This document shows positions 229 to 58,043 of a stretch of DNA of 64,000 nt, piece after piece. The translations under genes and the position numbers were made by a program. The stretch covers positions 82,364 to 146,363 of the forward strand of contig JAWLHJ010000005.1 of the NCBI GenBank assembly GCA_041690395.1, read 5' to 3'. The number at the start of each line of letters is the position of its first letter. Position 1 is the first letter of the stretch. A model generated the notes under the pieces. That model was not told where the DNA came from, searched no databases, and saw only the letters and a list, made by a program, of their open reading frames with translations. This DNA comes from Longimicrobiales bacterium (lineage in GTDB: Bacteria > Gemmatimonadota > Gemmatimonadetes > Longimicrobiales > Gaopeijiaceae).

Positions 229-1617
229 CTACTCCAGCTTCCGGTACAGCGTCCGGCGTCCGATACCGAGAAGAGCGGCGGCGCGACGTTTGTTGCCGTC
301 CACGCGCTCGAGCACATGCTCGACGTACCGGCGCTCGAGCTCCTGTAGCGTCATGATCTCGTCCTGGCTCACGAGCCTGGCCGCGGCACCGAGCGACGCG
401 GCCGCTCCGGGCTCGTCCCCGTTCTCCCTCGAGGGGCTCCGCACACGTGCCGGCAGGTGGCGCGGCTCCAGACGGGGGCCTTCACAGAACGTGACCGCGC
501 GCTCGACCAGGTTCTCGAGCTCCCGCACGTTCCCGGGGAATCGGTAGGCGCGTAGGGTCTCCAGGAACGGAGCCCCGAGTTCGGGCGGTGTCCGGTCGAG
601 GCGCACCGCGTGCCTCTGGACGAATCGGGCCGCGAGGAGGTCGATGTCACCGGTCCGCTCCCGCAGGGGCGGAAGCGATAGACGGAACGTCTCGAGGCGG
701 TAGTACAGGTCGTGCCGAATGCTTCCCTCTTCCTGATCCCCGTCGTCGCTGAGATCGCGGTGCGTGGCGGCGATCACCCGAACGTCGACCGGCGTGCTCC
801 GGTCGCTGCCCACCGGCCGCACCTCCCCCTCCTGCAACACGCGGAGCAGCTTCGCTTGGAGGCCCTGGGGCATCTCCCCGATCTCGTCCAGGAGAAGCGT
901 GCCTCCGTCCGCCTCCTGGAACAGACCCGCGCGGCTGGAGGTCGCCCCCGTGAAGGCGCCCTTCACGTGTCCGAAGAACTCGCTCTCCAACAGCGATTCC
1001 GGGATCCCCGCGCAGTTCACGGCCAGAAACGGCTTGCCCTTCCGGGAGCTCTCGGCGTGGATGGCCCGGGCGGCGAGTTCCTTCCCGGTCCCGCTCTCGC
1101 CCTGTAGCAGGACGGGGCCCTGACCGCGCGCGATCCTCTTCAGGTCGTGGAAGAGCTCGGTCATCACGGGACTGCGCCCGACCATGCCGTGGAAGTCGGG
1201 CGCGCCCATCGCCTCCCGGTAGCGCAGGAGCTCGTCCTTGAGTCGCCTGGTCTCGAGGACCCGGGCGACACGGACCGACAGGTGGTCGAGGTCGAGCGGC
1301 TTGGTCAGGAAGTCGTCCGCTCCTTCCTTGAGCGCCCGAACCGCCTGGTCGATCGTGCCGAACGCGGTGATCACGATGAAGGCGGGTGGGTGCTCCATGG
1401 AGCGCGTGCGCTCGAGCAGCTCGAGGCCGTTCGCTCCGGGGAGCCGAAGGTCGCTCACGACGAGGTCGACCCGGGTGCCGGCGAGGGTCTCGACGGCCGC
1501 TTCGGCCGATCCCGCAGTCAGCACGGTCGCGCCGTCGTCCTCGAGCTCGTCCTTCAGGAGGCTGCGGAGCGCTTCTTCGTCTTCCACGACCAGAACCGTT
1601 GCCACGTCACGCCTCAT
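229..1617 (-). CDS. sigma-54-dependent response regulator (NtrC/AtoC family: REC + AAA+ + Fis-type HTH)
   Basis: ATG at 1615-1617 (MRRDVATVLVVEDEE); REC Asp in LVVSDLRLPG, Walker A GESGTGKE, GAFTGA loop, C-terminal HTH RRAAALLGIGRRTLYRKL. The first ~200 codons of the 664-aa track ORF overlap the kinase gene and are not coding. Confidence 0.9.
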   Translation of the reverse strand: MRRDVATVLVVEDEEALRSLLKDELEDDGATVLTAGSAEAAVETLAGTRVDLVVSDLRLPGANGLELLERTRSMEHPPAFIVITAFGTIDQAVRALKEGADDFLTKPLDLDHLSVRVARVLETRRLKDELLRYREAMGAPDFHGMVGRSPVMTELFHDLKRIARGQGPVLLQGESGTGKELAARAIHAESSRKGKPFLAVNCAGIPESLLESEFFGHVKGAFTGATSSRAGLFQEADGGTLLLDEIGEMPQGLQAKLLRVLQEGEVRPVGSDRSTPVDVRVIAATHRDLSDDGDQEEGSIRHDLYYRLETFRLSLPPLRERTGDIDLLAARFVQRHAVRLDRTPPELGAPFLETLRAYRFPGNVRELENLVERAVTFCEGPRLEPRHLPARVRSPSRENGDEPGAAASLGAAARLVSQDEIMTLQELERRYVEHVLERVDGNKRRAAALLGIGRRTLYRKLE

Positions 1618-3058
1618 CGGATGCCTCGGTCGCGAGTGGGAAGCGGACGGTGAAGCGCGCGCCGCCCAGGGGAGAGCGGTCCACTTCGATGCCGCCGCCG
1701 TGCTTCTCGACGATCCCGTGGACGACCGCGAGGCCGAGCCCGGAGCCTTCGCCGGATGGCTTGGTCGTGTAGAACGGCTCGAAGACCCGCGAGCGAACCT
1801 CGTCGGGGATGCCCGGACCGTCGTCCTCCACGATAAGCTCCGCGTGCTCGGCCGTGACTCGTTGAGAGATGCGCACCCGCCCGCCCGGACTGGCCTGACA
1901 GCCGTTGCGCACCAGGTTGGTGATCGCTTCCTCGACGCGGCGAGCTTCGAGAGGGAGGGTGCCTGCGTTCCGTCCCCGATCGAACTCCACGACGGTCCCG
2001 GTCCGGGTCGCCACTTCACTGGCGGCGGCGACCGCCCCGTCCACCAGGTCGGCCAGCGAGGCATCTCGCCTCCGTCCGGGCTCGGACCGACCGAAGTCCA
2101 TGAGCTGGCGGATGATGGCCTCCATACGACGCACCTGCGCCCGGATGGTCGCGAGTGCTCCGTGCGTGTGCTCTCCCTCGTCGTAGTCGCGGAGTAGCCG
2201 CTGCGCCTGACCGTCGACCACACTCAGCGGCGAGCCGAGCTCGTGAGCGACGCCGGACGCCAGCTCTCCGACCGCGGCGAGCTTCTCGGCGCCCGCGAGT
2301 CGGGCCTGCAGGGCGTGCTCCGTGCGACGGCGCTCGTCGAGCTCGTCCGCGGCCTCCTCCAGCCGATCCAACATGGCGTTGAAGCTGCGCGCGAGCGCGG
2401 CGAGCTCGGACGGGCCCGACGGATCGGCCCGGTGGCCGGTCTGGCCCGATCCGACGCGGGTCATGCTCTCGTTCAGCCGGCTCAGCGGACCTCCGACTGC
2501 CGCACGGTGCCCCCGCAGCACGAGAAGGGAGACCACGGCCATCCCGAACAGGAGAAGTGCCCCCGCGCGGAGCCGAAGCCCCGTGATGTACTCCTCGAAG
2601 TCGCTCTGCCTCCGTGTAACCTGGAGGAGGCCGAGGCCTTGTCCCCACTGGTCCGTGAGTGGGACGAACGAGGAGTAGACGCGGCGTCCCGCCAGCGAGC
2701 CGAACTCGCCGGTTCGGTCTCCGACGGCGACCAATTCGTCGATGCCTTCGGGGGGACCGTCGGGATCGGCTCCTCCGAACGAGGAGACGATCTCGCCGTC
2801 CGGTCCGTACACGTAGGCCCCATAGACCCGCCCGATACTCAGCGCCGATCGGAGCGCCTCCGACACGGTGCCGGGGCGGTCACGCTCCATGGCGTGGACC
2901 AGGGGGAGTCGGAGCGCCCTGGCGACGAGCTCCACGTCGTCCTTGAGGCGCCGCTCGGCCTCGGTCTCGATCGTGTGGAGCAGCCAGAAGATCGAGCCGC
3001 CGAGCGCGAGGAACAGCGGTATCAGGACCCTCAACACCAAAGCGGTGCGTAAGCTCAT
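1607..3058 (-). CDS. membrane sensor histidine kinase (TM-periplasmic-TM, HAMP, HisKA, HATPase_c)
   Basis: ATG 3056-3058; two hydrophobic segments, H-box GVAHELGSPL, DDGPGIP and GSGLGLA boxes; 11-nt overlap with the downstream regulator gene. Confidence 0.88.
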   Translation of the reverse strand: MSLRTALVLRVLIPLFLALGGSIFWLLHTIETEAERRLKDDVELVARALRLPLVHAMERDRPGTVSEALRSALSIGRVYGAYVYGPDGEIVSSFGGADPDGPPEGIDELVAVGDRTGEFGSLAGRRVYSSFVPLTDQWGQGLGLLQVTRRQSDFEEYITGLRLRAGALLLFGMAVVSLLVLRGHRAAVGGPLSRLNESMTRVGSGQTGHRADPSGPSELAALARSFNAMLDRLEEAADELDERRRTEHALQARLAGAEKLAAVGELASGVAHELGSPLSVVDGQAQRLLRDYDEGEHTHGALATIRAQVRRMEAIIRQLMDFGRSEPGRRRDASLADLVDGAVAAASEVATRTGTVVEFDRGRNAGTLPLEARRVEEAITNLVRNGCQASPGGRVRISQRVTAEHAELIVEDDGPGIPDEVRSRVFEPFYTTKPSGEGSGLGLAVVHGIVEKHGGGIEVDRSPLGGARFTVRFPLATEASDEA

Positions 3059-19405: not shown

Positions 19406-19447
19406 TCCGGACGGTTCACATCCATCGCATCTCAGGAGAAGCGGAAA

Positions 19448-21496
19448 ATGTCCCAGCAGGGTAACACTGGACACGAGGGCACACAGACGGCCCGCAGGGA
19501 GTACCGTCCCGGCCAGATCAGCGTGACCGACCACTCCGTGCGTCAGCGCATCGAGTTCAACGGACTCACCGAAGACGACCTCGGCGTCGTGCAGGCGTGG
19601 GCGGCCGAATGCGAGGCCGCCCTCGACGGGCTCATCGATCGGTTCTACCAGCACGTCGGCCGGAACCCCGTGACCAAGGGGGTATTGGACGAGCACACGA
19701 CGGTCGCTCAGCAGCGTCCCCGGATCACGGCGTACCTCAAGACGTTCTTCACGGGCCGCATCGACGACCGGTACGTCGACTACCGACGCGTCGTCGGTGC
19801 ACGGCACGACGACATCGACCTCGACTCGAGTTGGTACGTCGCGATGTACGAGGTGATTCGCGACGGGCTGGTGCAGGCCGTAAAGGGCTCCGGCGCCACC
19901 CCCGAGGAGCTGTCGCGCTTCGGCGAAGCCCTCGGCAGACTCATCCAGGTGGACATCGGGTTGGTGGTCACGGCGCTGACGAACTCCCGCATGGCCAAGA
20001 TGCAGGTTCTCCAGGCGGAGATCGAAGGGCAGCTCCAGGCCATCGGCCGCTCCCAGGCCGCCATCGAGTTCGACCTCGAAGGGACGATCCTGACCGCGAA
20101 CGCGAACTTCCTGTCGGTCATGGGCTACTCCCTCGACGAGATCCGGGGCCAGCACCACAGCCTGTTCGTGGATCCGTCGCACGCCGCGAGTCCCGCGTAT
20201 TCCCAGTTCTGGGCCAAGCTGAACCGTGGTGAGTTCGAATCCGGTGAGTTCAAGCGTCTCGGCAAGAACGGCAAGGAGGTCTGGATCCAGGCTTCCTACA
20301 ACCCGGTCATGGGTGCCGATGGCAAGCCGGCGAAGGTGGTCAAGTACGCCACCGACATCACCGCGCGCCGGTACGCGACGGACCAGATTTCGGAGACCAT
20401 CGCGTCCCTGGCGGACGGAGACCTCTCGGCACGGGTGCCGGACGACGTGACCGGCGACTTCGAGGTGGTGGCGCGGTCCCTCAACGAAGCGATCCGCAGC
20501 CTCGATTCGAGCCTCGCCCAGGTGGCGGCGGCGGCCGAGCAGGTGTCGTCCGCTTCCGAGGAGATCAGCAGCGGAAGCCAGTCCCTCGCGCAGAGCACGT
20601 CGGAGCAGGCCAGCACGCTCGAGCAGGTCTCGAGCAGCCTGCAGGAGATGTCCTCGATGACGCAACAGAACACCTCCAACTCCCACGAGGCGAAGAGCCT
20701 GTCGGATGCCGCGAGGCAGTTCTCCGACAAGGGAATGGACTCGATGCGGAGGCTGTCCGAGGCGATGGATCGCATCAAGGCGTCGTCCGATCAGACCGCC
20801 AAGATCGTCAAGACCATCGACGAGATCGCGTTCCAGACCAACCTGTTGGCCCTCAACGCTGCCGTCGAAGCGGCGCGTGCGGGTGATGCGGGCAAGGGGT
20901 TCGCGGTCGTCGCGGAGGAGGTCCGAAACCTCGCCATGCGGAGCGCGGAGGCCGCGAAGGACACGGCTCAACTCATCGAGGAGTCGGTGGGCAACGCCGA
21001 GGGTGGCGTCGCCTTGAACCAGGAAGTGATGGGCAATCTCGAGGAGATCAGCGCGCAGGTTGGCAAGGTCAGCGAAGTCATGGCGGAGATCTCCGCCGCG
21101 TCTGAGCAGCAGTCCCAGGGCATCGAGCAGATCACGACGGCGGTCGAACAGATGAACCAGGTGACTCAGCAGTCCGCGGCGAACGCCGAGGAGTCGTCCA
21201 GCGCCGCGGAGGAGCTCTCCGGGCAGTCGGAGGAAATGCGCTCACTCGTGGGGCGCTTCCGGATTACCGGACAGCACGACGGGCACCAGCCGGGCTACGG
21301 AAACGCCCCGGTGTATGGAAACCAGGGTGGCTGGCAGGGCGACGGCGCCCGCCCCGGGCCCGGGGGGCGTGGGCAGAACCGGCCGGGATCCGAGCCCCCC
21401 GCACGTCGAAACGGCGCCACGAAGGGCCAGCCGGCCGGGGTCGGCGCGAGCCGTCTCTTGCCGTTCGACGACGACGCGGCCCTGGGAGACTTCTGA
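19448..21496 (+). CDS. soluble methyl-accepting chemotaxis protein: globin-coupled sensor + PAS + HAMP + MA domain
   Basis: No TM segment; protoglobin-like N-terminus (FYQHVGRNP...[19 protein letters not shown]), PAS ([34 protein letters not shown]), HAMP, signalling hairpin [38 protein letters not shown]; Gly/Pro/Gln-rich C-terminal tail. Confidence 0.88.
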
Positions 21497-29658: not shown

Positions 29659-29707
29659 GACGCGCGTCTCTCGTCCTCCCCCCAGAGAAGTGTGGAAAGC
29701 GATCGGA

Positions 29708-31090
29708 ATGGCGACCATCCTGTGTGTCGACGATGAGCCTGCGGCGGCTTCCGTATTGAAGGACGCCCTCGAGCAGTGCGGACACGACGCCGTAGCCGTC
29801 CACAACGTGGCCGCCGCCATGAAGGTGCTGTCGAGATCCGGGATCGACCTCATCGTGTCCGATTACCGCATGCCGGAGGCGAACGGGTTGGAGTTCCTGG
29901 AGGAGCTCCGCAGGGAGGGGCTGGACATCCCGCTGGTCATGGTCACGGGACACGCTTCCATCGAGCACGCCGTGGCGGCCATCAAGGCCGGAGCGGTGGA
30001 CTACATCACGAAGCCGATCCGTCCACAGCAGCTCGAGATCGCGGTCGACCAAGCTCTGGAGTTCACCCGCCTGAAGCGTGAGAACGCGCAACTCCGGGAG
30101 GAGCTGACCCAGATGCGGTCGGCACGGGAGATCATCGCCGAAAGCGAGTCGTTACGGCGTATTCTCGAGACGATCCGCGTGGTGGCGCCGACACGCGCGA
30201 CCGTCCTCCTCCAGGGCGAGTCGGGCACGGGTAAGGAGCTTCTCGCGCGAACCGTCCATAACATGAGCGATCGCTCCGAGGGGCCCTTCATTGCGATCAA
30301 CTGCGCGGCCATCCCCGAGAACCTGGTGGAGAGCACGCTGTTCGGCCATGAGAAGGGGGCGTTCACGGGCGCCGTGAAGCAGGTGAAAGGTGCGTTCGAG
30401 CGGGCACACCGTGGCACCCTCCTGCTCGACGAAGTGTCCGAGATGCGGATGGATCTGCAGGCGAAGCTCTTACGCGTGCTCCAGGAACAGGAGTTCGAAA
30501 GGGTGGGCGGCACCCAGCCCATCTCCGTCGACGTGCGCATCGTGGCGACGACGAACCGGGACCTGGCGGAGCACGCCAGGGAAGGAAACTTCAGAGAAGA
30601 TCTCTATTATCGGCTCAGCGTCGTGCCTCTCCTGGTCCCGCCATTGCGCGAGCGCCTCGAAGACATTCCGGCGCTCGTGCACCATTTCGCGGCGAGCACG
30701 GCCGCCGACGTCGGAAGGACCATCACCGCCGTGTCGCCCGAGACCATCGATCTGCTGAGCCAGTACGAATGGCCGGGGAACGTGCGCGAGCTCTCGCACG
30801 CGGTGGAGCGGGCCGTCATCCTGTCCACGGGCGACACCCTCGAACCGAGGGCGTTCGACCCCGCGCGATTCGGTCTGACACCGGGTCGTGGGCAGGGACC
30901 GGTCCTCGGTGGCGACACGTCCGCCGGCGGGGGCGCTGCAGGCGATCTGGATACGCTCAATATCGCGGAGGTCGAGGAGATCCTGATCCAGAGAGCGCTC
31001 GAAGCAACCGGGAACAACCGCACGAAGGCCGCCGATCTCCTCGGGGTTTCCGTGCGCACGCTGCGAAACAAGCTGAACAAGCCTTCCTGA
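29708..31090 (+). CDS. sigma-54-dependent flagellar response regulator (FleR/FlrC/FlbD-like)
   Basis: ATG 29708 (MATILCVDDE); REC LIVSDYRMPEANG, GESGTGKE, GAFTGA, C-terminal HTH KAADLLGVSVRTLRNKL; sits at the head of the flagellar cluster. Confidence 0.88.
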   Translation: MATILCVDDEPAAASVLKDALEQCGHDAVAVHNVAAAMKVLSRSGIDLIVSDYRMPEANGLEFLEELRREGLDIPLVMVTGHASIEHAVAAIKAGAVDYITKPIRPQQLEIAVDQALEFTRLKRENAQLREELTQMRSAREIIAESESLRRILETIRVVAPTRATVLLQGESGTGKELLARTVHNMSDRSEGPFIAINCAAIPENLVESTLFGHEKGAFTGAVKQVKGAFERAHRGTLLLDEVSEMRMDLQAKLLRVLQEQEFERVGGTQPISVDVRIVATTNRDLAEHAREGNFREDLYYRLSVVPLLVPPLRERLEDIPALVHHFAASTAADVGRTITAVSPETIDLLSQYEWPGNVRELSHAVERAVILSTGDTLEPRAFDPARFGLTPGRGQGPVLGGDTSAGGGAAGDLDTLNIAEVEEILIQRALEATGNNRTKAADLLGVSVRTLRNKLNKPS

Positions 31091-32206: not shown

Positions 32207-32216
32207 GTAGACGCTC

Positions 32217-32558
32217 ATGACCATTCACGGAATCAACCCGGGTCTCGGCATCCTTGGCGTGCCGTCCACGCCGTCCCGCCAGCAGCGGATCGACGACGCC
32301 GGCCAGGGTGACCGCGTGCGGGAGCACCCGGGCACGGTGGGGACACCGGGCTCCTACCCGGCGAACGGTGTTCGCGGATCCTCCCCGGCGGAGGCTCCCA
32401 GAGGGACGGATCCGGCGCTGTGGAGTGTCCTGACCTCCGAGGAGAGGGCCTTCTTCGCCCGGGCCAGGGAGAGTGGCCCGCTCATGTACGGCCGAGGATC
32501 GGATGGCGGCGCCCTCGCTGGCGCGCGCGTCGGCGGCCGCATCGACGTGAAGGTCTGA
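32217..32558 (+). CDS. hypothetical protein embedded between flgC and fliE
   Basis: 113-codon ORF with tight spacing to both neighbours (10 nt and 1 nt); Pro/Gly-rich N-half, motif DPALWSVLTSEERAFFARARE; no family recognised. Confidence 0.5.
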   Translation: MTIHGINPGLGILGVPSTPSRQQRIDDAGQGDRVREHPGTVGTPGSYPANGVRGSSPAEAPRGTDPALWSVLTSEERAFFARARESGPLMYGRGSDGGALAGARVGGRIDVKV

Positions 32559-37369: not shown

Positions 37370-37839
37370 GTGACCGATTCAAGTTCCGGCTCCAGAGCGT
37401 GCTCGAGCTCAAGGAGCAGGGCGAGAAGGACTCGGCGGTGGGGTTGGCCAGGGCGCGGCGCGATGCCGAGTCCGCGACTCGGGCCAAGGAGATGCTCGAG
37501 ACGGCTCGAGAGTCCGGGCGCACGGACCTGGCGCGTGCGCATGGCGCGGGCGGGTCGGTCGGGCACATGCGCAACCTGTCCTACGTCCTGGAGCGGGTGG
37601 ACGATCAGATCCGGGCCGCCGACGAGGTCTGCAAGGAGGCGGACGAGGCCGTGGTCGAGAGGCTCGAGCATTACCGTGCGGCTCTGCGTGACCGGAAGAC
37701 CATCGAAGGGCTGCGGGAGCGGAAGCTCCACCAGTGGCGGAGCGAGGAAGTACGGTCCGAACAAAAAGCGATGGACGACATCGCCATCACGCGGCACGGG
37801 CGTTCCGGATCGGCCGCGAGGTTGGGGGCCGGCGAATGA
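37366..37839 (+). CDS. fliJ: flagellar export chaperone-escort FliJ
   Basis: ATGA overlap with fliI; FKFRLQSVLELKEQ... coiled coil of expected size and position. Confidence 0.8.
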   Translation: MSDRFKFRLQSVLELKEQGEKDSAVGLARARRDAESATRAKEMLETARESGRTDLARAHGAGGSVGHMRNLSYVLERVDDQIRAADEVCKEADEAVVERLEHYRAALRDRKTIEGLRERKLHQWRSEEVRSEQKAMDDIAITRHGRSGSAARLGAGE

Positions 37840-38561
37840 GACTCGCCATGATCGGACTCGTATCCCTCATCGTCGGCGTGCTGGGCGGTGCCCTGTTCAG
37901 TGGGAACCGCATGAAGAACGCCATCCTGGAGGAGCGGGCTCAGGTCGCCGCTGACTCCCCCGAGTCTCTCGGCGGGTCGGACGTGGCGAGCGCCGCCCAG
38001 GAGAGAGCCGGAGCCGGGTCTCCGAGGGTGGCGCCTTCGACCGACCGCACGAATCCGGAAGACCGACCGGGCGTCCCGGATCGCGGAGCGGGAGAGGCGT
38101 CGACTCCCGGGGCCAGATCCTCGGTGACGACCGCCGCTCTCGACCCTCCGAGCGGAGAGCGGTCCGGACCTGAGCGCGCGTCGACCGGGACGGGCGCTTC
38201 GACCCCCGAGGTCGGCGGCAACGCGGTCTCCGTCGGGGTGGACGAGGCGGCGACGGGCGCCGCCGGCCCCACGTCGTCGGGTGGTCCCGAAGTCGCGCCC
38301 ACCGGCACGGAGGTGGCGGCGCCCGCAGGGGTAGTCGCTGACTCCGCAGCGATCCAGGGCGCCATGCAGCTGGCCCGGATGTTCAGCTCCATGAAGGCCG
38401 TCGACGCGGCCGCCGTGCTCCAGGAGCTCACCGACGCCGAGGTCGATGCGATCCTCCGCCACATGCAGTCACGGCTGGCTGGCCAGATTCTCGGAGAGTT
38501 CGAGCCGGCACGTGCGGCGCTGTTGAGCCGCACGGTGTTGGGAGGCACACCCACGCCATGA
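37836..38561 (+). CDS. MgtE_N-like flagellar protein (YlxF/FlbB position)
   Basis: ATGA overlap; N-terminal TM, long Pro/Gly/Ser-rich linker, C-terminal LARMFSSMKAVDAAAVLQELTDAEVDAILRHMQSRLAGQILGEF. Confidence 0.7.
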   Translation: MRLAMIGLVSLIVGVLGGALFSGNRMKNAILEERAQVAADSPESLGGSDVASAAQERAGAGSPRVAPSTDRTNPEDRPGVPDRGAGEASTPGARSSVTTAALDPPSGERSGPERASTGTGASTPEVGGNAVSVGVDEAATGAAGPTSSGGPEVAPTGTEVAAPAGVVADSAAIQGAMQLARMFSSMKAVDAAAVLQELTDAEVDAILRHMQSRLAGQILGEFEPARAALLSRTVLGGTPTP

Positions 38562-40729
38562 TCTCCCCCAGTCCGAACGCCGGTGGATTCGGGTTGTCAG
38601 GCCCCGGGACCGGCGTGACATCGCGCGGGACCGGTGCGGGCTTCGTCGCCGAGGCTGGCTTCGAGTCCGGAACCGTACACGAGCGCGAGACCGTGCCGTC
38701 CGGAAGCCCGGCGGGTCCGGACTTCGCCGTGGCCTTCCTGGCCGCCCTCGGTCTCGGAGATCCTGCGGAGCCGGAGGTCGGGACGCCCGGAGAGCTCGAA
38801 GAAGGAGCGCGTCCGGCCCTGGAAGATCCGGTGGCCGGCGGCTACGGGGACGTCGACGTGAGGGTTCGCGTGCGAAAGGCGCTCCTGGCACCCGGGTCCT
38901 CCGCGGTGTCCGGCGAGCCCATCAGGGGCCCGGGATCGCCTGACATCATGGCGAGCCGGGAAGCGCTTCCGAGCGACTCGTCCGTAATCGCGTCGCCGGC
39001 TGACACGGCGGGCGGTCGGCCTGCGACCGGCCCCGCCATGGGGAGAGAAGGAGCAGCGGCAGACGTCGTGCGCTCTCTACCCCCGGAGCCGGGTGGGGCG
39101 GTCGAGCGTGCGTCCGAGGCGAACCCCGTCCCGGTGCATACGATGCGCCCCGACGGCGCATCGACCGACGATCGGGCGTCCGCGACACCGGAAGGCGGGT
39201 CCCCGCACCTGGCTGGTCCCGATGCGGCGTCACAGACCGACTCTGCGGACGCCTCGACGGCGGACGATGGGGATGCGGTGTTGCCCTCTCCCGGACTATC
39301 CCAGGGCGACGCCTCGGAGGCTCCGTCGAGCATGTCCAGCGGGGCGGCTCCGGCCGCGGGAGAAGCGAGCCGGTCCTGGGAGCGATTGGATCCGGTGCTG
39401 AAGGGAAAGCTCGAGCGAGTGATCGACCGTATGCGCTCCGAGCACGGTCATGAGGTGCAGCTGATCGAGGGTTACAGGACCGGCGAGCGCCAGGCTGAGT
39501 TGTTCGCTCAGGGGAGAAGCGCTCCCGGGCCGATCGTGACCTGGACTCGCTCGTCCCGGCATATGGAAGGTCGCGCCGCGGACCTCATGGTGGATGGCAG
39601 CTTCGAGCTCGGGACGGGCTACCAGCGACTTCAGGAGGTGGCCCGTCAGGAGGGCCTCCGCACGCTGGGGCCGCGAGATCCGGGGCATGTCGAGCTGCCC
39701 GAAGGGTTGGACGCACCTTCTGCCCGGCGATTCAGGACCGACGCGACCTCGGTCGATGCGGTCCCCGGGGCTTCCGTCGAGCGCCAGACGCAGCGTAGGG
39801 CGGCGCGTCCCGAGGGAGCGGTCACGACGGTGCCTCGGACGATGGACAACGCCATGTGGACGTCGAGTCCGGTTGAGCCCGCGGAGGTGGCACGGGTGGC
39901 GGAAGTCGCGCGAGTCGCGGAGATCTCTCCTGTGGCGAAGGTCGCCCGCGTGGCCGATGTCGCTGGATCGGTGTCCCTCTCCGGCGAGGCAGGTCGCCCG
40001 CCGGTCTCCAGCGCTGGAACCGAGGTGTCGGCCACGGCTCCCATGCGTGCCGAGAATCTCGCCAGCGAGCTCCGGGACCCCGCCGTGGATCCCGGATCGT
40101 CGCGCCGGCAAGCATCGCGCCCGATCGATCCGCCACCCGATCCCGACCTCGGGCGAGACGCCGGGCATGGGGTCGCCGACGGGATCCGGACGCCGGACCT
40201 CGGGGGTTCGGGAGGGCGCCGTGGTGCCGTGGCTTCCGTAGCACCTGTCGACGTGCTCGGCCGGGTCGAGCAGGCTCTCGACATGCGCGAGCTCGGCCGC
40301 GCCACCCGCCCGGGATTCGTGTCCCTGCGGATCGGTGATGGCTTCGGCGGCGGAGACCAGGTGCGGGTCGGGCTCGCCGATCACCGGGTCGATGTGGATC
40401 TCGATCTGACGGACCGTCGCGGGTCGGAGGCCATCCGGGGCCGTGTGGCCGAACTCTCCAGATCACTGGGAGAGCGGGGCTTGAGCCTGGGTGCCCTACG
40501 GGTCTCCTCGCCGGACCCGTCCAGCGGGTGGGCCCAGGGTCTTCGATCGTCGGCCGATGGCGTGGCGGAGTTGATGAACACCTGGCTGTCCCAGCCGAGC
40601 CAGGACCGGGGCCGCGACCCCAACGGAGGCGCACGCTCACACGATGGCCGGACGCCCCAGGACGAGAGCGGCTCGAGCCGCTCACACTCGAACTCGGACA
40701 AGGAAGGGCGGCATGCCCACAAGCATTGA
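38558..40729 (+). CDS. fliK: hook-length control protein FliK-like with an internal peptidase M15 domain
   Basis: fliK synteny; C-terminal Flg_hook-like GFVSLRIGDG...VRVGLADHRVDVDLDL...GLSLGALRVSS; aa ~275-382 EGYRTGERQAELFAQGR...SSRHMEGRAADL...DPGHVEL = SxHxxGxAxD + His zinc motif of M15 peptidases. Confidence 0.75.
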   Translation: MISPSPNAGGFGLSGPGTGVTSRGTGAGFVAEAGFESGTVHERETVPSGSPAGPDFAVAFLAALGLGDPAEPEVGTPGELEEGARPALEDPVAGGYGDVDVRVRVRKALLAPGSSAVSGEPIRGPGSPDIMASREALPSDSSVIASPADTAGGRPATGPAMGREGAAADVVRSLPPEPGGAVERASEANPVPVHTMRPDGASTDDRASATPEGGSPHLAGPDAASQTDSADASTADDGDAVLPSPGLSQGDASEAPSSMSSGAAPAAGEASRSWERLDPVLKGKLERVIDRMRSEHGHEVQLIEGYRTGERQAELFAQGRSAPGPIVTWTRSSRHMEGRAADLMVDGSFELGTGYQRLQEVARQEGLRTLGPRDPGHVELPEGLDAPSARRFRTDATSVDAVPGASVERQTQRRAARPEGAVTTVPRTMDNAMWTSSPVEPAEVARVAEVARVAEISPVAKVARVADVAGSVSLSGEAGRPPVSSAGTEVSATAPMRAENLASELRDPAVDPGSSRRQASRPIDPPPDPDLGRDAGHGVADGIRTPDLGGSGGRRGAVASVAPVDVLGRVEQALDMRELGRATRPGFVSLRIGDGFGGGDQVRVGLADHRVDVDLDLTDRRGSEAIRGRVAELSRSLGERGLSLGALRVSSPDPSSGWAQGLRSSADGVAELMNTWLSQPSQDRGRDPNGGARSHDGRTPQDESGSSRSHSNSDKEGRHAHKH
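39878..39964 (+). repeat. 18-nt (hexapeptide) tandem repeat inside fliK
   Basis: AEVARV AEVARV AEISPV AKVARV ADVAGS: five consecutive in-frame units. Confidence 0.8.
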
Positions 40730-41393
40730 AGCATCGCAGCCCCCCGTCCTCCTGCCGTCTCGCATGACGGTGGGGGGAGCGCAGGGGAACCCCACGCTCG
40801 GGAAGCAGGAGTTCCTGCAACTCCTGGTAGCCCAGCTGAAGCATCAGGACCCCATGAATCCCAGCAACCCCGAGGACATGGCGGCTCAGCTCGCTCAGTT
40901 CTCGTCGGTCGAACAGCTCATCGGCATCAATGAGCAGCTGGGTACGCAGGCCTCCTCCGCGGAGGTCATGGCGTCGTCGCTGAACAACAGCACCGCGGTC
41001 GGCGTCATCGGAAAGAACGTGCTCACCCCCGGGGACCAGGTCGCCATCGACGACCCTGACGGCGGAGCAGTGACCGTCGTGGTCGGGGAGGGAGGAGGTC
41101 GCGGCGTCCTGACGCTCTTCGATGAGGGGGGAAACCGGGTCGGTGCCCGTGATCTCGGCACCCTGGACGGTGGTCGGCAGGACATCGACCTCGGGAGTGC
41201 CGCCGACGGGCTCCCGCCAGGGGACTACCGATACGAGGTCAGCGTCCAGGACGCTGACCAGTCTTCGGTCGAAGTCCGCACGCTCATGCGCGCCCACATC
41301 GACGGCGTGCGCTACGGCTCGAACGGCCCGCAGCTGCTTTCCGGGGATCTGGAGATCCCGATGGCCGACGTGATCGAAATCATCCAGCAGTAA
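40713..41393 (+). CDS. flgD: flagellar hook capping protein FlgD
   Basis: ATG 40713 after AGGAAG; LGKQEFLQLLVAQLKHQDPMNP...AQLAQFSSVEQL. Confidence 0.92.
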   Translation: MPTSIEASQPPVLLPSRMTVGGAQGNPTLGKQEFLQLLVAQLKHQDPMNPSNPEDMAAQLAQFSSVEQLIGINEQLGTQASSAEVMASSLNNSTAVGVIGKNVLTPGDQVAIDDPDGGAVTVVVGEGGGRGVLTLFDEGGNRVGARDLGTLDGGRQDIDLGSAADGLPPGDYRYEVSVQDADQSSVEVRTLMRAHIDGVRYGSNGPQLLSGDLEIPMADVIEIIQQ

Positions 41394-44567: not shown

Positions 44568-44981
44568 ATGGATGAGCGAAACGAAGAAGCACTGGACGAA
44601 CGAGCACTCGAGGCCGCCATGGAGGCGGAGCTGAACGACGGGGGCGAGGAGAGCCCGGCCGCCGAGTTCGGTGAATTCCGCCGCGATGGGGTGAGCGGGC
44701 AGCCCGCGGCGCTGAACATGCTCTATGACCTCCATATGCCGGTGGCCATCGAGCTGGGCAGGACCCGTATGTCGGTGCAGGAGATCCTGACTCTCGGTCG
44801 GGGATCCGTGATCCAGCTGGACCGCCTCGCCGGAGAGCCGGTGGACGTGTTCGTGGGTGATCGGCGGTTCGCCGAGGGAGAGGTGGTCGTCGTGGGGGAG
44901 CAGTTCGGCGTGCGGATCACCCGGATTCTGAGCACGAGCGTGGAGAACGCCGCGGAGTCCGCGTCGGAGTCCGCGGCTTGA
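44568..44981 (+). CDS. fliN: flagellar motor switch protein FliN
   Basis: MPVAIELGRTRMSVQEILTLGRGSVIQLDRLAGEPVDVFVGDRRFAEGEVVVVGEQFGVRI. Confidence 0.93.
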   Translation: MDERNEEALDERALEAAMEAELNDGGEESPAAEFGEFRRDGVSGQPAALNMLYDLHMPVAIELGRTRMSVQEILTLGRGSVIQLDRLAGEPVDVFVGDRRFAEGEVVVVGEQFGVRITRILSTSVENAAESASESAA

Positions 44982-44983
44982 CC

Positions 44984-46171
44984 ATGATGACCTGGGTCAC
45001 GGTGGTTTCGGCGCTGGCCTTCGTCTTGGGTGTCGTGGCCGTGGCCGCTCACTGGGCTCGCCGCTTCGGGACACGCTCCGGCGTCACGACCCCTCAGGGC
45101 TCCATCGAGGTGGTTTCGCGGGTGGGGCTCGCGCCCAAGCAGGGCGTGGCGACGGTGAAATTCGGTGGTCGCTTCCTACTCGTCTCCTATGGCGAAGGTG
45201 GCGTCCGTGCGCTCGCGGAAATGGATGCCGCGGCGTGTGATGCGGGCGACGAAATCGACGCTGGTGCGGGGGCGCATGGCCCGGTGAGGAGCGGGTTGGC
45301 CACGCTCCCTGGACAGGCCGGTGCCCTGATTTCCCTCGCGCGGCGCCGGGTCGCGGGCCTGCGGGTGCTCCCGGCCGTCCTGATGATGGGAACTCTCCTG
45401 GTCTCGGCGCCCTCGGTGGACGCACAGAGCGCTGCCGAGGCACCGGTCGCCGCGGTCGGTGAGGTCGCCCGGGTGCCCGCCGGCGACGGATCCGCGGGCC
45501 CGCAGATGAGCGTGAGCCTCGGTGGGCAGGAAGAGGAGGGGCGGTTGGAGCTGAGCGGTCCCGTGGGGACGGTCCTGTTCATCGGGTTCATGACGCTGAT
45601 CCCGACGCTCCTTCTCCTCATGACGAGCTTCACGCGGATCCTCATCGTGCTGCACCTGCTGAAGCAGGCGCTGGGTACACAGACGGCGCCCCCCGCGCAC
45701 CTTCTCGCGGCGATGGCGTTGCTCCTCACGGGCTTCGTCATGGCTCCGACCTTCGAGCAGATCCAGGTGTCCGCGGTGGAACCGTGGATGAATGGAGAGA
45801 CGGACGAGCTCCAGATGCTCGAGACGGCGTCGGGACCCATGCGTGACTTCATGCTGTCGCATACTCGAGAGCAGGACCTGGCGTCCTTCAGCGAGATGAG
45901 CGCCGGTCCGGTGCCGGAAACCATCGACGACGTACCGCTCGTCGTCGTGACCTCGGCGTTCGTCACGAGCGAGCTCACCAGCGCATTCCAGATGGGCTTT
46001 GCGCTTTTCCTTCCGTTCGTCGTGATCGACATCGTCGTGGCGTCCGTGTTGATGAGCATGGGCATGTTCATGCTCCCTCCGGTGATGGTGTCACTCCCTT
46101 TCAAGCTCCTCCTGTTCGTGCTCGTCGATGGATGGTCGCTGATCATGAACAGCCTGGTGAGGAGCTTCTGA
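44984..46171 (+). CDS. fliP: FliO-like N-terminal module continuous with export-gate protein FliP in one ORF
   Basis: aa 1-85: TM + IEVVSRVGLAPKQGVATVKFGGRFLLVSYGEGGV (FliO-like); aa ~120-150: signal-peptide-like RRRVAGLRVLPAVLMMGTLLVSAPSVDAQS; then FliP core MTSFTRILIVLHLLKQALG...; no stop between. Track ORF begins at TTG 44978. Confidence 0.85.
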   Translation: MMTWVTVVSALAFVLGVVAVAAHWARRFGTRSGVTTPQGSIEVVSRVGLAPKQGVATVKFGGRFLLVSYGEGGVRALAEMDAAACDAGDEIDAGAGAHGPVRSGLATLPGQAGALISLARRRVAGLRVLPAVLMMGTLLVSAPSVDAQSAAEAPVAAVGEVARVPAGDGSAGPQMSVSLGGQEEEGRLELSGPVGTVLFIGFMTLIPTLLLLMTSFTRILIVLHLLKQALGTQTAPPAHLLAAMALLLTGFVMAPTFEQIQVSAVEPWMNGETDELQMLETASGPMRDFMLSHTREQDLASFSEMSAGPVPETIDDVPLVVVTSAFVTSELTSAFQMGFALFLPFVVIDIVVASVLMSMGMFMLPPVMVSLPFKLLLFVLVDGWSLIMNSLVRSF

Positions 46172-53175: not shown

Positions 53176-53745
53176 ATGAGCCTCCGCCCGACGGTGTTCC
53201 TGATGCGGCCCTTCGCCGAGGGTGTCGCGAATGAGCAGGCCCGTGCCCTCGCTCTCGAGTCGGTACCCGTGGCGCCCACGGAGTTACAGCCCTCTCAGTA
53301 TGTGGCGGCCCAGGTGCGACGGATCCTGAGAGGAGAAGGCGACGCGTCGGTCTGGGCCCGCTTGCACGAGGCGCTGGCCGAAGTCGGGAGTGGCTCGGCT
53401 TCGTTGTCGCTCCCGTCTGCCGTTCCCACGACCGGTGCGTCGCCTGCGCCCGGCGATTGGGTCGCGTTCGCTGGGAGGTGGATGGAGTCGTCCCTGAGCT
53501 CGGCCTACGCACCCTATGCGCTCGCCCTCGCGGCCGCGTGCGTTCTCGTCCTCGCTTTCGCCTTCATCACCAGACGTCGGCAAGGCCGAATGTCGCCGCC
53601 GGAGGCTGTGGCCTCCGGGAATCTCGACCGTAGAGGCCAGGTCCGCGCCCTGGCGGCCACCGGCGTTCCCGTCGCCGATATCGCCCGCCGAATGGGCTTG
53701 TCCCGGGAAGCCGTCGTCGTCCTGACGCGGGTGCGCACGTCGTGA
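53176..53745 (+). CDS. hypothetical single-pass membrane protein with C-terminal HTH-like tail (DUF2802-like?), downstream of fliA
   Basis: ATG 53176 after GGGAGGA; TM YALALAAACVLVLAFAFI then RRRQGR; tail VRALAATGVPVADIARRMGLSREAVVVLTRV; GTGA overlap with flgF. Confidence 0.6.
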   Translation: MSLRPTVFLMRPFAEGVANEQARALALESVPVAPTELQPSQYVAAQVRRILRGEGDASVWARLHEALAEVGSGSASLSLPSAVPTTGASPAPGDWVAFAGRWMESSLSSAYAPYALALAAACVLVLAFAFITRRRQGRMSPPEAVASGNLDRRGQVRALAATGVPVADIARRMGLSREAVVVLTRVRTS

Positions 53746-56545: not shown

Positions 56546-57663
56546 TACGCTGGACGGGGGAAACCGCAGCGGGTGTCGAGGAAGCGCCCCTGAGCAACGC
56601 GACGCTGCGACGGATGGAGGCCTGGATGCATGTGGTGGCTGCCATCGTGACGCTCGCTCTTCTGGTCACGGCGGTAGCCGTGGGCGCGCAGGAGACGCGC
56701 ATCAGCGATCTGACCGTGGGCGGGGGCGAGGTTCCCGTCCGACTCGTCGGATACGGCCTGGTCGTCGGGCTCGACGGCACGGGTGACCGGGTGGTCGGGG
56801 GGTTCTCCTCGGGCCATACCGTGCGCTCCGTCGCCAACTTGCTCAGGCGGTTCGACGTCGAGGTTCCGGAGAACATGCTCCGGACCCGGAACGTCGCGGC
56901 AGTGCTGGTGACGGCGGAGGTATCGCCGTACCTGCGTCCTGGAGGGCGCTTCGACATCCATGTCTCCTCCTTGGGAGATGCCCAATCCCTTCGGGGCGGG
57001 GTCCTGTGGATCACGCCGCTGCAGAGCGGACCTTCGATCGATCCCGTCGCGTCGGCGCAGGGACCGCTGTTGATCAGCGAAGGTTCGGCGAGCAGCAATC
57101 GATACGCCGTCGAGACCACGGCGGCCCTGCCGGGAGGTGGGATCCTGGAGCAGCCCCTCCCCCGACTGGAGTTCGGCGTCGCCCCGGTGCTGCACCTCCG
57201 GCGTCCCGATCTCGTCACGGCGTCACGCATCGCGGAGGCGATCAACCTGAGCGTGGCCCCGGGTGTCGCGGTGGTCGAAGATCCGGGCTCCATATCCCTC
57301 ACGCTGGCGGATGGCATGGAGCCGTGGGATGCGGCGCGCCTTGCCGAGATCGGCAATCTCCCGGTCCAGCCGGGCCGCTCCGCGCGCGTCGTGATCGACA
57401 GTCGGTCGGGGACCGTCATCGCCGGGGGCGACATCACCATCGGTGAGGCGGTGGTCAGCTACGGGGAGCTGACGCTCGCCATTGGCGCATCGGCGCCCGC
57501 GGATCCTCTGGTCTTCGGAGACCTTCGCATGAATCCCGGCGCTTCGGTGCAGGACATCGCCGCCGCCCTCCACGGCGTCGCAGCGCGGCCGGAAGCCATC
57601 GCGGCGGTGTTCGAGTCGCTGCGCCAGGTCGGCGCGCTCACGGCGGAGGTGACCCTCCGATGA
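56542..57663 (+). CDS. flgI: flagellar P-ring protein FlgI
   Basis: RISDLTVGGGEVPVRLVGYGLVVGLDGTGD, ...ALHGVAARPEAIAAVFESLRQVGALTAEV; start may be ATG 56614. Confidence 0.93.
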   Translation: MIRWTGETAAGVEEAPLSNATLRRMEAWMHVVAAIVTLALLVTAVAVGAQETRISDLTVGGGEVPVRLVGYGLVVGLDGTGDRVVGGFSSGHTVRSVANLLRRFDVEVPENMLRTRNVAAVLVTAEVSPYLRPGGRFDIHVSSLGDAQSLRGGVLWITPLQSGPSIDPVASAQGPLLISEGSASSNRYAVETTAALPGGGILEQPLPRLEFGVAPVLHLRRPDLVTASRIAEAINLSVAPGVAVVEDPGSISLTLADGMEPWDAARLAEIGNLPVQPGRSARVVIDSRSGTVIAGGDITIGEAVVSYGELTLAIGASAPADPLVFGDLRMNPGASVQDIAAALHGVAARPEAIAAVFESLRQVGALTAEVTLR

Positions 57664-58043
57664 CCGGTGCGATCGGCGGGAGCGGCGGACGCGCCGCCAT
57701 CGGCCCTACCGCACCGGGACCCGGTGGAGATGGGCTGCAGGCGCTGAAGGATGGTCGGGTGGAGGGAGACGCCCAGCGGCTTCGAACGGCCACCCAACTC
57801 CTCGAGGGCACCTTCTATCAGGAGGTCTTCAAGGCCATGCGCGCCACGGTGCCAGAGGGGGGGATGGTGTCCGGCGGATCCGGTGAGGAGATCTTCACGG
57901 GGATGCTGGATCAGACCGTCGCCGACGCGGCCGCGGCTCGAAACGATGGTGGTCTCGGGAGCGCTCTGTACCGGTACCTGACACAACGCATCCATGGCGG
58001 TGCTTCACCGACCCCGGGGCCGCACGGAGAAGGCGCCCCGTGA
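57660..58043 (+). CDS. flgJ: FlgJ-like rod-binding protein (single domain, no glycosidase domain)
   Basis: ATGA overlap; Rod_binding pattern ATQLLEGTFYQEVFKAMRATV...EIFTGMLDQTVADAAA...GLGSALYRYL; 127 aa in total. Confidence 0.82.
   Translation: MTGAIGGSGGRAAIGPTAPGPGGDGLQALKDGRVEGDAQRLRTATQLLEGTFYQEVFKAMRATVPEGGMVSGGSGEEIFTGMLDQTVADAAAARNDGGLGSALYRYLTQRIHGGASPTPGPHGEGAP

Follow-up and report, generated by a model that had tools for sequence, protein, structure and literature searches.

An M15 peptidase domain within the FliK-position protein of Gemmatimonadota flagellar gene clusters

The fliK-position gene and its two folded domains

The DNA analysed here is a 64,000-nucleotide stretch (hereafter the window) of contig JAWLHJ010000005.1 from a Longimicrobiales bacterium of the phylum Gemmatimonadota (assembly GCA_041690395.1, positions 82,364 to 146,363 of the forward strand), which carries a flagellar gene cluster in which the fliK-position gene encodes a ruler-like protein with an M15 peptidase domain in mid-chain. 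The gene, referred to here as fliK-M15, is a single 723-codon open reading frame (ORF) on the + strand (38558..40729), extending from an ATG at 38558 to a TGA at 40727-40729, and as judged by ORF, coding frame and family it comprises a disordered ruler, the M15 peptidase domain, a linker with a Val-Ala (VA) repeat, a type III secretion substrate specificity switch (T3S4) domain and a disordered tail. The gene order assigned by Pfam is fliF-fliG-fliH-fliI-fliJ-(MgtE_N-like)-fliK-M15-flgD-flgE. A GGGAGG Shine-Dalgarno sequence lies 11 nt 5' of the ATG, the start shares 4 nt with the stop of the upstream MgtE_N-like gene in an ATGA junction, and the end overlaps by 17 nt with flgD, which begins at an ATG at 40713 and has its own Shine-Dalgarno sequence, AAGGAAGGG. 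The G+C content is 0.75-0.80 at third codon positions (GC3) and lowest at second positions (GC2), with the coding signal in one frame from end to end. An earlier interpretation of the window from its letters alone (the sequence-only reading) had described a single 723-codon ORF with these two overlaps in the position of fliK, as is confirmed by the ORF and its junction sequences and, for the position, by the Pfam neighbours and the synteny described below.

A whole-protein AlphaFold2 model, computed with a 50-sequence family alignment, predicts two folded domains only, spanning residues ~271-385 and ~585-655 (with a helix at 566-580 ahead of the second), each with a predicted local distance difference test score (pLDDT) above 90 or near it. 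Residues 1-270, 386-560 and 656-723 have pLDDT values below 50 and are predicted to be disordered. The N-terminal ruler (residues 1-270; 38558..39367, + strand) consists to 56% of Pro, Gly, Ala and Ser and shares 18-26% identity across the family, although Met1, Pro16, Phe56 and Leu61 are nearly invariant and residues 56-63 (FAxxLAxA) form a short conserved helix. The C-terminal tail (residues 656-723; 40523..40726, + strand) is charged. Within the linker that follows the peptidase, and starting ~55 residues past it, lies a (Val/Ile)-Ala-x tripeptide repeat of 8-9 units (residues 441-469; 39878..39964, + strand; leave-one-out hidden Markov model (HMM) E = 1e-12), which reads ARVAEVARVAEI..VAKVARVADVA. 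The repeat is present in 50/50 aligned family members with 55% identity, yet is predicted by AlphaFold2 to be disordered. We found no known motif or function for residues 441-469, and the repeat could represent a binding, tethering or autoinhibitory element.

The first folded domain (residues 271-385; 39368..39712, + strand; pLDDT >90) is assigned by profiles and by Foldseek as an M15/LAS zinc peptidase domain of the Ply500/CwlK/T5 type, resembling L-Ala-D-Glu endopeptidases, and the model predicts for it an alpha/beta fold of the LAS/hedgehog type. When searched in isolation against the PDB, the domain matches Ply500 of a Listeria phage (2vo9) with E = 6.6e-5, and the family profiles reach both 2vo9 and LysB4 (6akv) at E = 4e-12 to 4e-11 (among these values, 7e-12 for 2vo9 and 4e-11 for 6akv). 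A tblastn search with the domain returned 65 phage records, most of them Bacillus and Listeria endolysins, that cover 84-95% of its length; the top match is an Aeromonas phage endolysin with 43% identity, to which the domain profile aligns in hhalign with a probability of 99.5% and E = 1.4e-22. Foldseek searches with the model identify LysECD7 (8q2g, 6e-5), ChiX (5opz, 3e-4) and the L-alanoyl-D-glutamate peptidases of RB49 and T5 (23ri, 2mxz), and a search against BFVD matches M15B/C endolysins.

The catalytic motifs of the M15 domain are apparently complete. The SxHxxGxAxD motif (residues 333-342; 39554..39583, + strand), which reads S333-R-H335-M-E-G-R-A-A-D342 and provides the predicted Zn ligands His335 and Asp342, is found in 119/120 listed homologues, and the DxxH motif (residues 374-377; 39677..39688, + strand), D374-P-G-H377, with the likely general base Asp374 and the predicted third Zn ligand His377, in 120/120; both motifs with their spacing of ~41 residues are kept in 119 of these 120 (from 161 relatives in the first database search). 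His335 and Asp342 align with the SNHNYGVAVD motif of Ply500, the corresponding residues of which, once the 12-residue expression tag of 2vo9 is accounted for, we take to be the Zn ligands His80 and Asp87. Because the HMM alignments to Ply500, LysB4 and 1lbu ended before the DxxH motif or placed it out of register, the third ligand was assigned by direct alignment of the domain with three annotated phage L-Ala-D-Glu endolysins, which yields Glu304, Arg307, Gln312, Ser333, His335, Gly338, Ala340, Asp342, Asp374 and His377 as invariant columns.

The fold, the SxHxxGxAxD and DxxH motifs, a conserved Arg and an AQGRTxPGxIVT motif are shared with the M15C/LAS enzymes as a group (Ply500, LysB4, the T5 and RB49 enzymes, LysECD7 and B. 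subtilis CwlK). These enzymes are stand-alone or carry a cell-wall-binding domain, whereas here the peptidase sits mid-chain in a ruler that is predicted to be exported by the type III secretion system (T3SS). A further difference is that the 'WGGDW' loop, which lies ahead of DxxH in the phage M15C endolysins, is absent from the FliK-M15 family.

In scans of the single sequence against Pfam and NCBIfam, all M15 models remained below threshold (VanY 16.9 bits with a cut-off of 25, Peptidase_M15_2 14.6 with 27 and MepK 17.4 with 185). Since these scans failed for both folded domains, profiles and structure prediction were needed for either assignment, and the fliK-embedded M15 domains are a divergent subfamily that current Pfam and NCBIfam models miss.

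The second folded domain is a FliK-type T3S4 domain, similar to Flg_hook (residues 562-655; 40241..40522, + strand; pLDDT 87-95), as indicated by Foldseek and the family HMM. As a single sequence, the window protein has no match to Pfam Flg_hook (PF02120), which is nevertheless matched by 43/50 aligned family members at E <= 0.01 (best 1.9e-9). A leave-one-out family profile, from which the window protein was excluded, recovers its C-terminal residues 562-652 with E = 1.5e-21 and its M15 region with E = 2.7e-57, such that membership of the window protein in Flg_hook would hold by transitivity only. With the whole-protein model, Foldseek matches the C-terminal domain of Salmonella FliK (2rrl) with E = 3e-4 and the switch domain of PscP (5cuk) with E = 2.5e-2. 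With a domain-only model (pLDDT 75), the same two structures rank as the top two of ~350,000 PDB chains, each with a probability of 1.0, and superpose with template modelling (TM) scores of 0.52 for 2rrl (root-mean-square deviation (rmsd) 3.3 Å) and 0.53/0.61 for 5cuk, the rmsd values ranging from 3.3 to 4.0 Å. Alignment by hhalign with FliK of E. coli K-12 places the two proteins in the correct register (EcFliK residues 258-315 against residues 587-644) with E = 0.15 and 0.013, and at the level of sequence this comparison is not significant. The C-terminal profile returned spurious matches to designed proteins, and nothing else, among PDB sequences.

The protein therefore resembles FliK of Salmonella (2rrl) and the YscP/PscP rulers (5cuk) in its slot after fliJ and before flgD-flgE, in its Pro/Gly/Ala/Ser-rich disordered ruler, and in the compact C-terminal alpha/beta T3S4 domain, with 2rrl and 5cuk as the best folds in the PDB, that is followed by a disordered tail. 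The long disordered N-terminal ruler and the disordered C-terminal tail predicted by the model are those of a FliK. In contrast to FliK, the fusion protein carries a folded zinc peptidase of ~115 residues and the conserved (VAx)n repeat between ruler and T3S4 domain, and it has diverged too far from the enterobacterial FliK proteins for significant pairwise detection. We are highly confident that the gene encodes an orthologue of FliK in which an intact M15 domain lies between the N-terminal ruler and the T3S4 domain. The missing Flg_hook match of the window protein itself, the weak similarity to E. coli FliK and the fact that 64 kb of the genome were inspected would also suit a different arrangement, in which the protein is not the functional ruler, but instead a T3SS-exported wall hydrolase with a borrowed T3S4-like domain, and a canonical FliK is encoded elsewhere. 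We consider this very improbable, given that the gene occupies the exact fliK slot in 56/56 (upstream) and 57/58 (downstream) informative loci, that the window contains the bulk of the core flagellar genes (flgB/flgC through motB) and no other ORF fitting the T3S4 profile, that 43/50 family members do match Flg_hook, and that a disordered N-terminus, a folded T3S4 domain and a disordered tail together make up the FliK architecture.

The domain content proposed by the sequence-only reading is upheld by these results: residues 1-270 are ruler-like, the PDB profiles, hhalign and Foldseek agree on an intact M15 domain, the ligands it had named (His335, Asp342 and His377) are invariant with the phage endolysins, as are Arg307 and Asp374, and the family Pfam matches and the 2rrl and 5cuk folds support its Flg_hook-like C-terminus. 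The structure prediction it had suggested for the peptidase region likewise returned a folded M15/LAS domain (residues ~271-385). The Pfam searches it had suggested gave a divided outcome, since for the single sequence M15 scored below threshold and Flg_hook was absent, whereas profiles and structure support both domains. That reading had been prepared to abandon the M15 assignment if no significant match was found, and on Pfam alone this would have been done wrongly, because the domain is clear from profiles and structure.

Conservation of the fusion in Gemmatimonadota

The annotations of relatives of the fusion protein are inconsistent ('M15 family metallopeptidase', 'FliK', 'CwlK', 'YcbK' or 'hypothetical'), and among the 161 relatives from the first database search all source names that bear a taxon are Gemmatimonadota. 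A genome scan with one genome per species and one family-specific peptide pattern identified 163 species-level genomes with a relative, 80 of which were kept for locus analysis; nearly all record titles among these 80 name Gemmatimonadaceae, Gemmatimonas, Gemmatimonadales or Longimicrobiales. The sole match in a bin named outside Gemmatimonadota (locus L074) lies on a 3.5-kb contig of a Chloroflexales bin and is probably mis-binned. The M15 and T3S4 domains are encoded in one stop-to-stop ORF at 74/80 loci, always in the order M15 then T3S4, which extends to the family the arrangement that the sequence-only reading had suggested looking for in orthologues. FliI/FliJ are encoded upstream at all 56 loci with room for them and FlgD/FlgE downstream at 57/58.

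Among the six exceptions, five are truncated at contig ends and one (locus L077) is frameshift-like. In L077 (7410-9193) the M15 and T3S4 domains are split over a pair of overlapping ORFs, pointing to a pseudogene, a frameshift or an error in the sequencing. Such a split is what would be expected if the fusion were an artefact of assembly or annotation, with a frameshift or a chimeric contig merging two genes. This explanation retains next to no probability: the one-ORF architecture and the domain order recur in 74/80 independent genomes, five of the six exceptions end with their contigs, and the coding-frame signal is uniform along 38558-40729. Moreover, an HMMER search against 1.84 billion representatives recovered 533 clusters (50% identity) at E <= 1e-30, the top 150 of which all score >380 bits against the two-domain profile and mostly match it over nearly the full length. 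An origin of the fusion by frameshift or chimerism is effectively refuted by the same single ORF in 74/80 genomes; the fusion is genuine, of old standing and subject to selection.

The mean pairwise identity within the family is 62% for the M15 domain, 55% for the (Val/Ile-Ala-x) repeat, 43% for the T3S4 domain and 18-20% for the ruler and linkers. The peptidase is thus the most strongly constrained part of the protein, as seen from its 62% identity compared with 18-20% for ruler and linkers, and purifying selection on it is strong. Conservation as such could reflect a structural role, in which the M15 domain serves the ruler as a zinc-stabilised refolding ratchet, an anchor or a length-setter and peptidoglycan cleavage is irrelevant; the location of the domain within the ruler/linker part of FliK and the absence of the WGGDW loop of the lytic phage enzymes would be in keeping with such a role, and fold stability alone would also conserve the zinc ligands. 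Invariance, however, extends to positions that are not ligands (Asp374 of DxxH, Arg307, Gln312 and Ser333), the substrate-groove motif QGR-PG-VTWT is common to the FliK-M15 family and Ply500, and a spacer should drift like the ruler (18%) rather than hold an identity far above that of the rest of the protein. We therefore regard a purely structural role as unlikely. The conservation pattern is typical of an active enzyme, because catalytic and groove residues are invariant and the identity of the M15 domain lies far above that of the ruler, and the embedded domain, with its catalytic residues intact, is apparently catalytically competent.

The flagellar gene cluster and its putative wall hydrolase

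The flgJ gene of the cluster (57660..58043, + strand) encodes a protein of 127 residues that consists of a rod-binding domain only (Pfam Rod-binding PF10135, 3e-13, sole match), and Pfam detects no glucosaminidase, lytic transglycosylase or M23 domain in it. Where FlgJ has a single domain, the lytic activity comes from separate enzymes, for example SltF or BB0259 (PMC8517470). Pfam scans brought up no other peptidoglycan hydrolase among the ORFs of the window that they covered, the window being the part of this genome that was inspected. A second fliK or M15 gene within the window was considered and rejected, as no other ORF of the 64 kb matches either the T3S4 or the M15 family profile.

The closest relatives of the M15 domain include endolysins, some of which, among them Ply500 and LysB4, lyse Gram-positive cells from outside, and model organisms release their FliK into the medium. 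Both circumstances would favour an exported effector, for which the flagellar T3SS is the secretion route and neighbouring (especially Gram-positive) bacteria or free muropeptides are the target. Against this stands that FliK is exported in small amounts and during hook-basal-body assembly only, and that the strict conservation within a core operon, together with a hydrolase-less FlgJ, fits a role in assembly better. No immunity-like gene is evident beside fliK-M15 in the window or in the neighbourhoods of loci L081 and L083, and we judge an effector function to be improbable.

The window also holds most core flagellar and chemotaxis genes, as identified by Pfam scans of its ORFs, namely flgB/C, fliE, fliL/M/N/O-P/R, flhB/A/F/G, fliA, flgF/G/A/H/I/J/N/K and motA/B, as well as cheW, a gene for a methyl-accepting chemotaxis protein, cheA and a gene for a sigma-54 activator. 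Directly downstream of fliK-M15 lies flgD, encoding the hook cap (40713..41393, + strand; Pfam FlgD 1.6e-20), and directly upstream the MgtE_N-like gene (37734..38561, + strand), in the ylxF position of fla/che operons, the match of which to Pfam MgtE_N (E = 0.0013) is weak and covers ~35 residues; this gene is translationally coupled to fliK via the ATGA junction. The slot between fliJ and fliK is also filled in L081, with a weak MgtE_N match, and in L083, with no Pfam match. Among the loci compared, FlgE of the window is 87% identical to that of a 'Gemmatimonadetes bacterium' metagenome-assembled contig (L062), and FliI is ~72% identical to those of several Gemmatimonadota/Longimicrobiales loci. 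A look-up of the exact sequence of the fusion protein gave no match among public assemblies.

Several further ORFs of the cluster are of note. The gap between flgC and fliE contains a small, conserved ORF of ~115-121 residues (32211-32558, + strand) without a Pfam match, and small ORFs in the same position in the distant Gemmatimonadota loci L081 (1541-1906) and L083 (1765-2112) also lack one; the product may be a flagellar component that is unrecognised or diverged. A 189-residue ORF in the interval between fliA and flgF (53176-53745, + strand) has weak helix-turn-helix matches (E ~0.01) and might encode a regulator, for example an anti-sigma or FlgM-like protein. The methyl-accepting chemotaxis protein encoded beside cheW (19406-21496, + strand) combines an N-terminal protoglobin sensor with PAS and HAMP domains and is possibly a gas- or redox-sensing chemoreceptor. 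Two sigma-54-dependent response-regulator activators are encoded at 229-2223 (- strand) and 29660-31090 (+ strand). The location of the latter immediately 5' of flgB/flgC, an arrangement also seen in L081, suggests sigma-54 control of the flagellar operon. Finally, one stop-to-stop ORF (44978-46171, + strand) covers both the FliO (residues 67-134) and the FliP (residues 242-432) Pfam domains, and could represent either a fused fliO-fliP gene or two neighbouring genes that share a frame.

A proposed role in the passage of rod and hook through the wall

Salmonella FliK is a substrate of the rod/hook export class that leaves the cytoplasm unfolded and with its N-terminus leading. We propose that FliK-M15 would pass through the flagellar type III channel in the same way, like other substrates of the rod/hook class, and that molecules leaving the channel before the rod has grown out of the periplasm would be set free in that compartment. 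Once there, the M15 domain would fold, bind Zn2+ and cleave the stem peptides of peptidoglycan, most likely at the L-Ala-D-Glu bond, thereby widening the mesh at the assembly site and opening a passage for rod and hook. Once the hook has grown past the outer membrane, FliK would be released outside the cell, wall-cutting would end and the activity would be self-limiting, and the C-terminal T3S4 domain would then perform the usual FlhB switch. The M15 domain on FliK would in this way stand in for the hydrolase domain of beta- and gamma-proteobacterial FlgJ. Periplasmic delivery of the peptidase by flagellar export gains support because the FlgJ of the same cluster is hydrolase-less. We assign a probability of roughly 0.6 to the model as a whole, in which FliK-M15 is an exported, periplasmic peptidase that cuts the wall for the passage of rod and hook.

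The proposed job, local opening of peptidoglycan, is the same as that of FlgJ (a rod cap with a GH73 muramidase) and of SltF, the BB0259 lytic transglycosylase and the M23-fused variants. FlgJ is itself exported via the flagellar T3SS. The dual-domain FlgJ proteins offer a parallel for an enzyme fused to a T3SS substrate of the rod/hook class (PMC8517470). The fusion protein differs from them in its carrier, which is FliK, and in its chemistry, that of a stem-peptide peptidase instead of a glycan-strand glycosidase or lytic transglycosylase, and by Pfam it is without a Rod-binding domain.

The same enzyme family is also found in the service of secretion. ChiX (5opz), a top structural match of the FliK-M15 domain, has a role in chitinase secretion by Serratia that is comparable to that of TagX, and is exported by a holin-like protein. 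TagX of Acinetobacter is a Ply500-like L-Ala-D-Glu endopeptidase that is required for secretion by the T6SS (type VI secretion system), and has been proposed to let the T6SS machine cross the peptidoglycan of its producer (PMC5061870). TagX is a separate, membrane-anchored protein, whereas the FliK-M15 enzyme belongs to one of the substrates of the very machine it would serve. The sole helix predicted N-terminal of the M15 domain comprises 8 residues (56-63) and is too short to span a membrane, and the fusion protein therefore has no membrane anchor. Lacking both a Rod-binding domain and an anchor, the fusion is neither of the FlgJ type nor of the TagX type, but by analogy would work like both.

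A number of points weigh against this model. Neither folded domain of the window protein is recognised by curated models from its single sequence, and the similarity of its C-terminal domain to E. coli FliK falls short of significance at the sequence level. The missing WGGDW loop could change or abolish substrate binding, and the enzyme that actually opens the wall for the flagellum could be a Sec-exported lytic transglycosylase from another part of the genome. A zinc enzyme within a ruler must also stay unfolded in the cytoplasm to be exported, which the parallel with FlgJ makes plausible, and export, periplasmic release, activity, bond specificity and the role in wall penetration are all steps that we infer. 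A further-reaching version of the proposal, that the M15 domain of FliK has replaced the FlgJ hydrolase and is the sole hydrolase that opens the peptidoglycan for rod and hook in Gemmatimonadota, is put forward tentatively, with the balance leaning somewhat against it. If it applied, the (VAx)n repeat could act on the M15 activity as a tether or by autoinhibition, and the molecule that measures length would itself confine wall cutting in time and place, since FliK enters the periplasm no longer than it takes the hook to cross the outer membrane.

Our full-text literature search, which did not extend to subscription-only papers, brought up no account of a fusion between FliK and a peptidase, nor of flagellar assembly or wall penetration in Gemmatimonadota, in line with the sequence-only reading, which was aware of no FliK-M15 fusion. 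We know of no described FliK or YscP with an enzymatic domain. Each part of the protein is already known, and what we find undescribed is the combination of a known ruler with a known enzyme family, and its proposed role.

How flagella and other machines that span the envelope get past peptidoglycan is understood in few lineages, where passage relies on the FlgJ muramidase, on SltF-type or other lytic transglycosylases, or on M23 fusions. If the proposed model is true, FliK-M15 would add a third chemistry, that of a stem-peptide L,D-endopeptidase, and a new carrier, the ruler FliK, in a design apparently conserved throughout an entire phylum that has received little study, and it would be the first ruler of the FliK/YscP family with an enzymatic domain. 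It raises the questions of how a segment that forms a folded domain affects length measurement and export, and of whether the opening of the wall is timed by secretion of the ruler.

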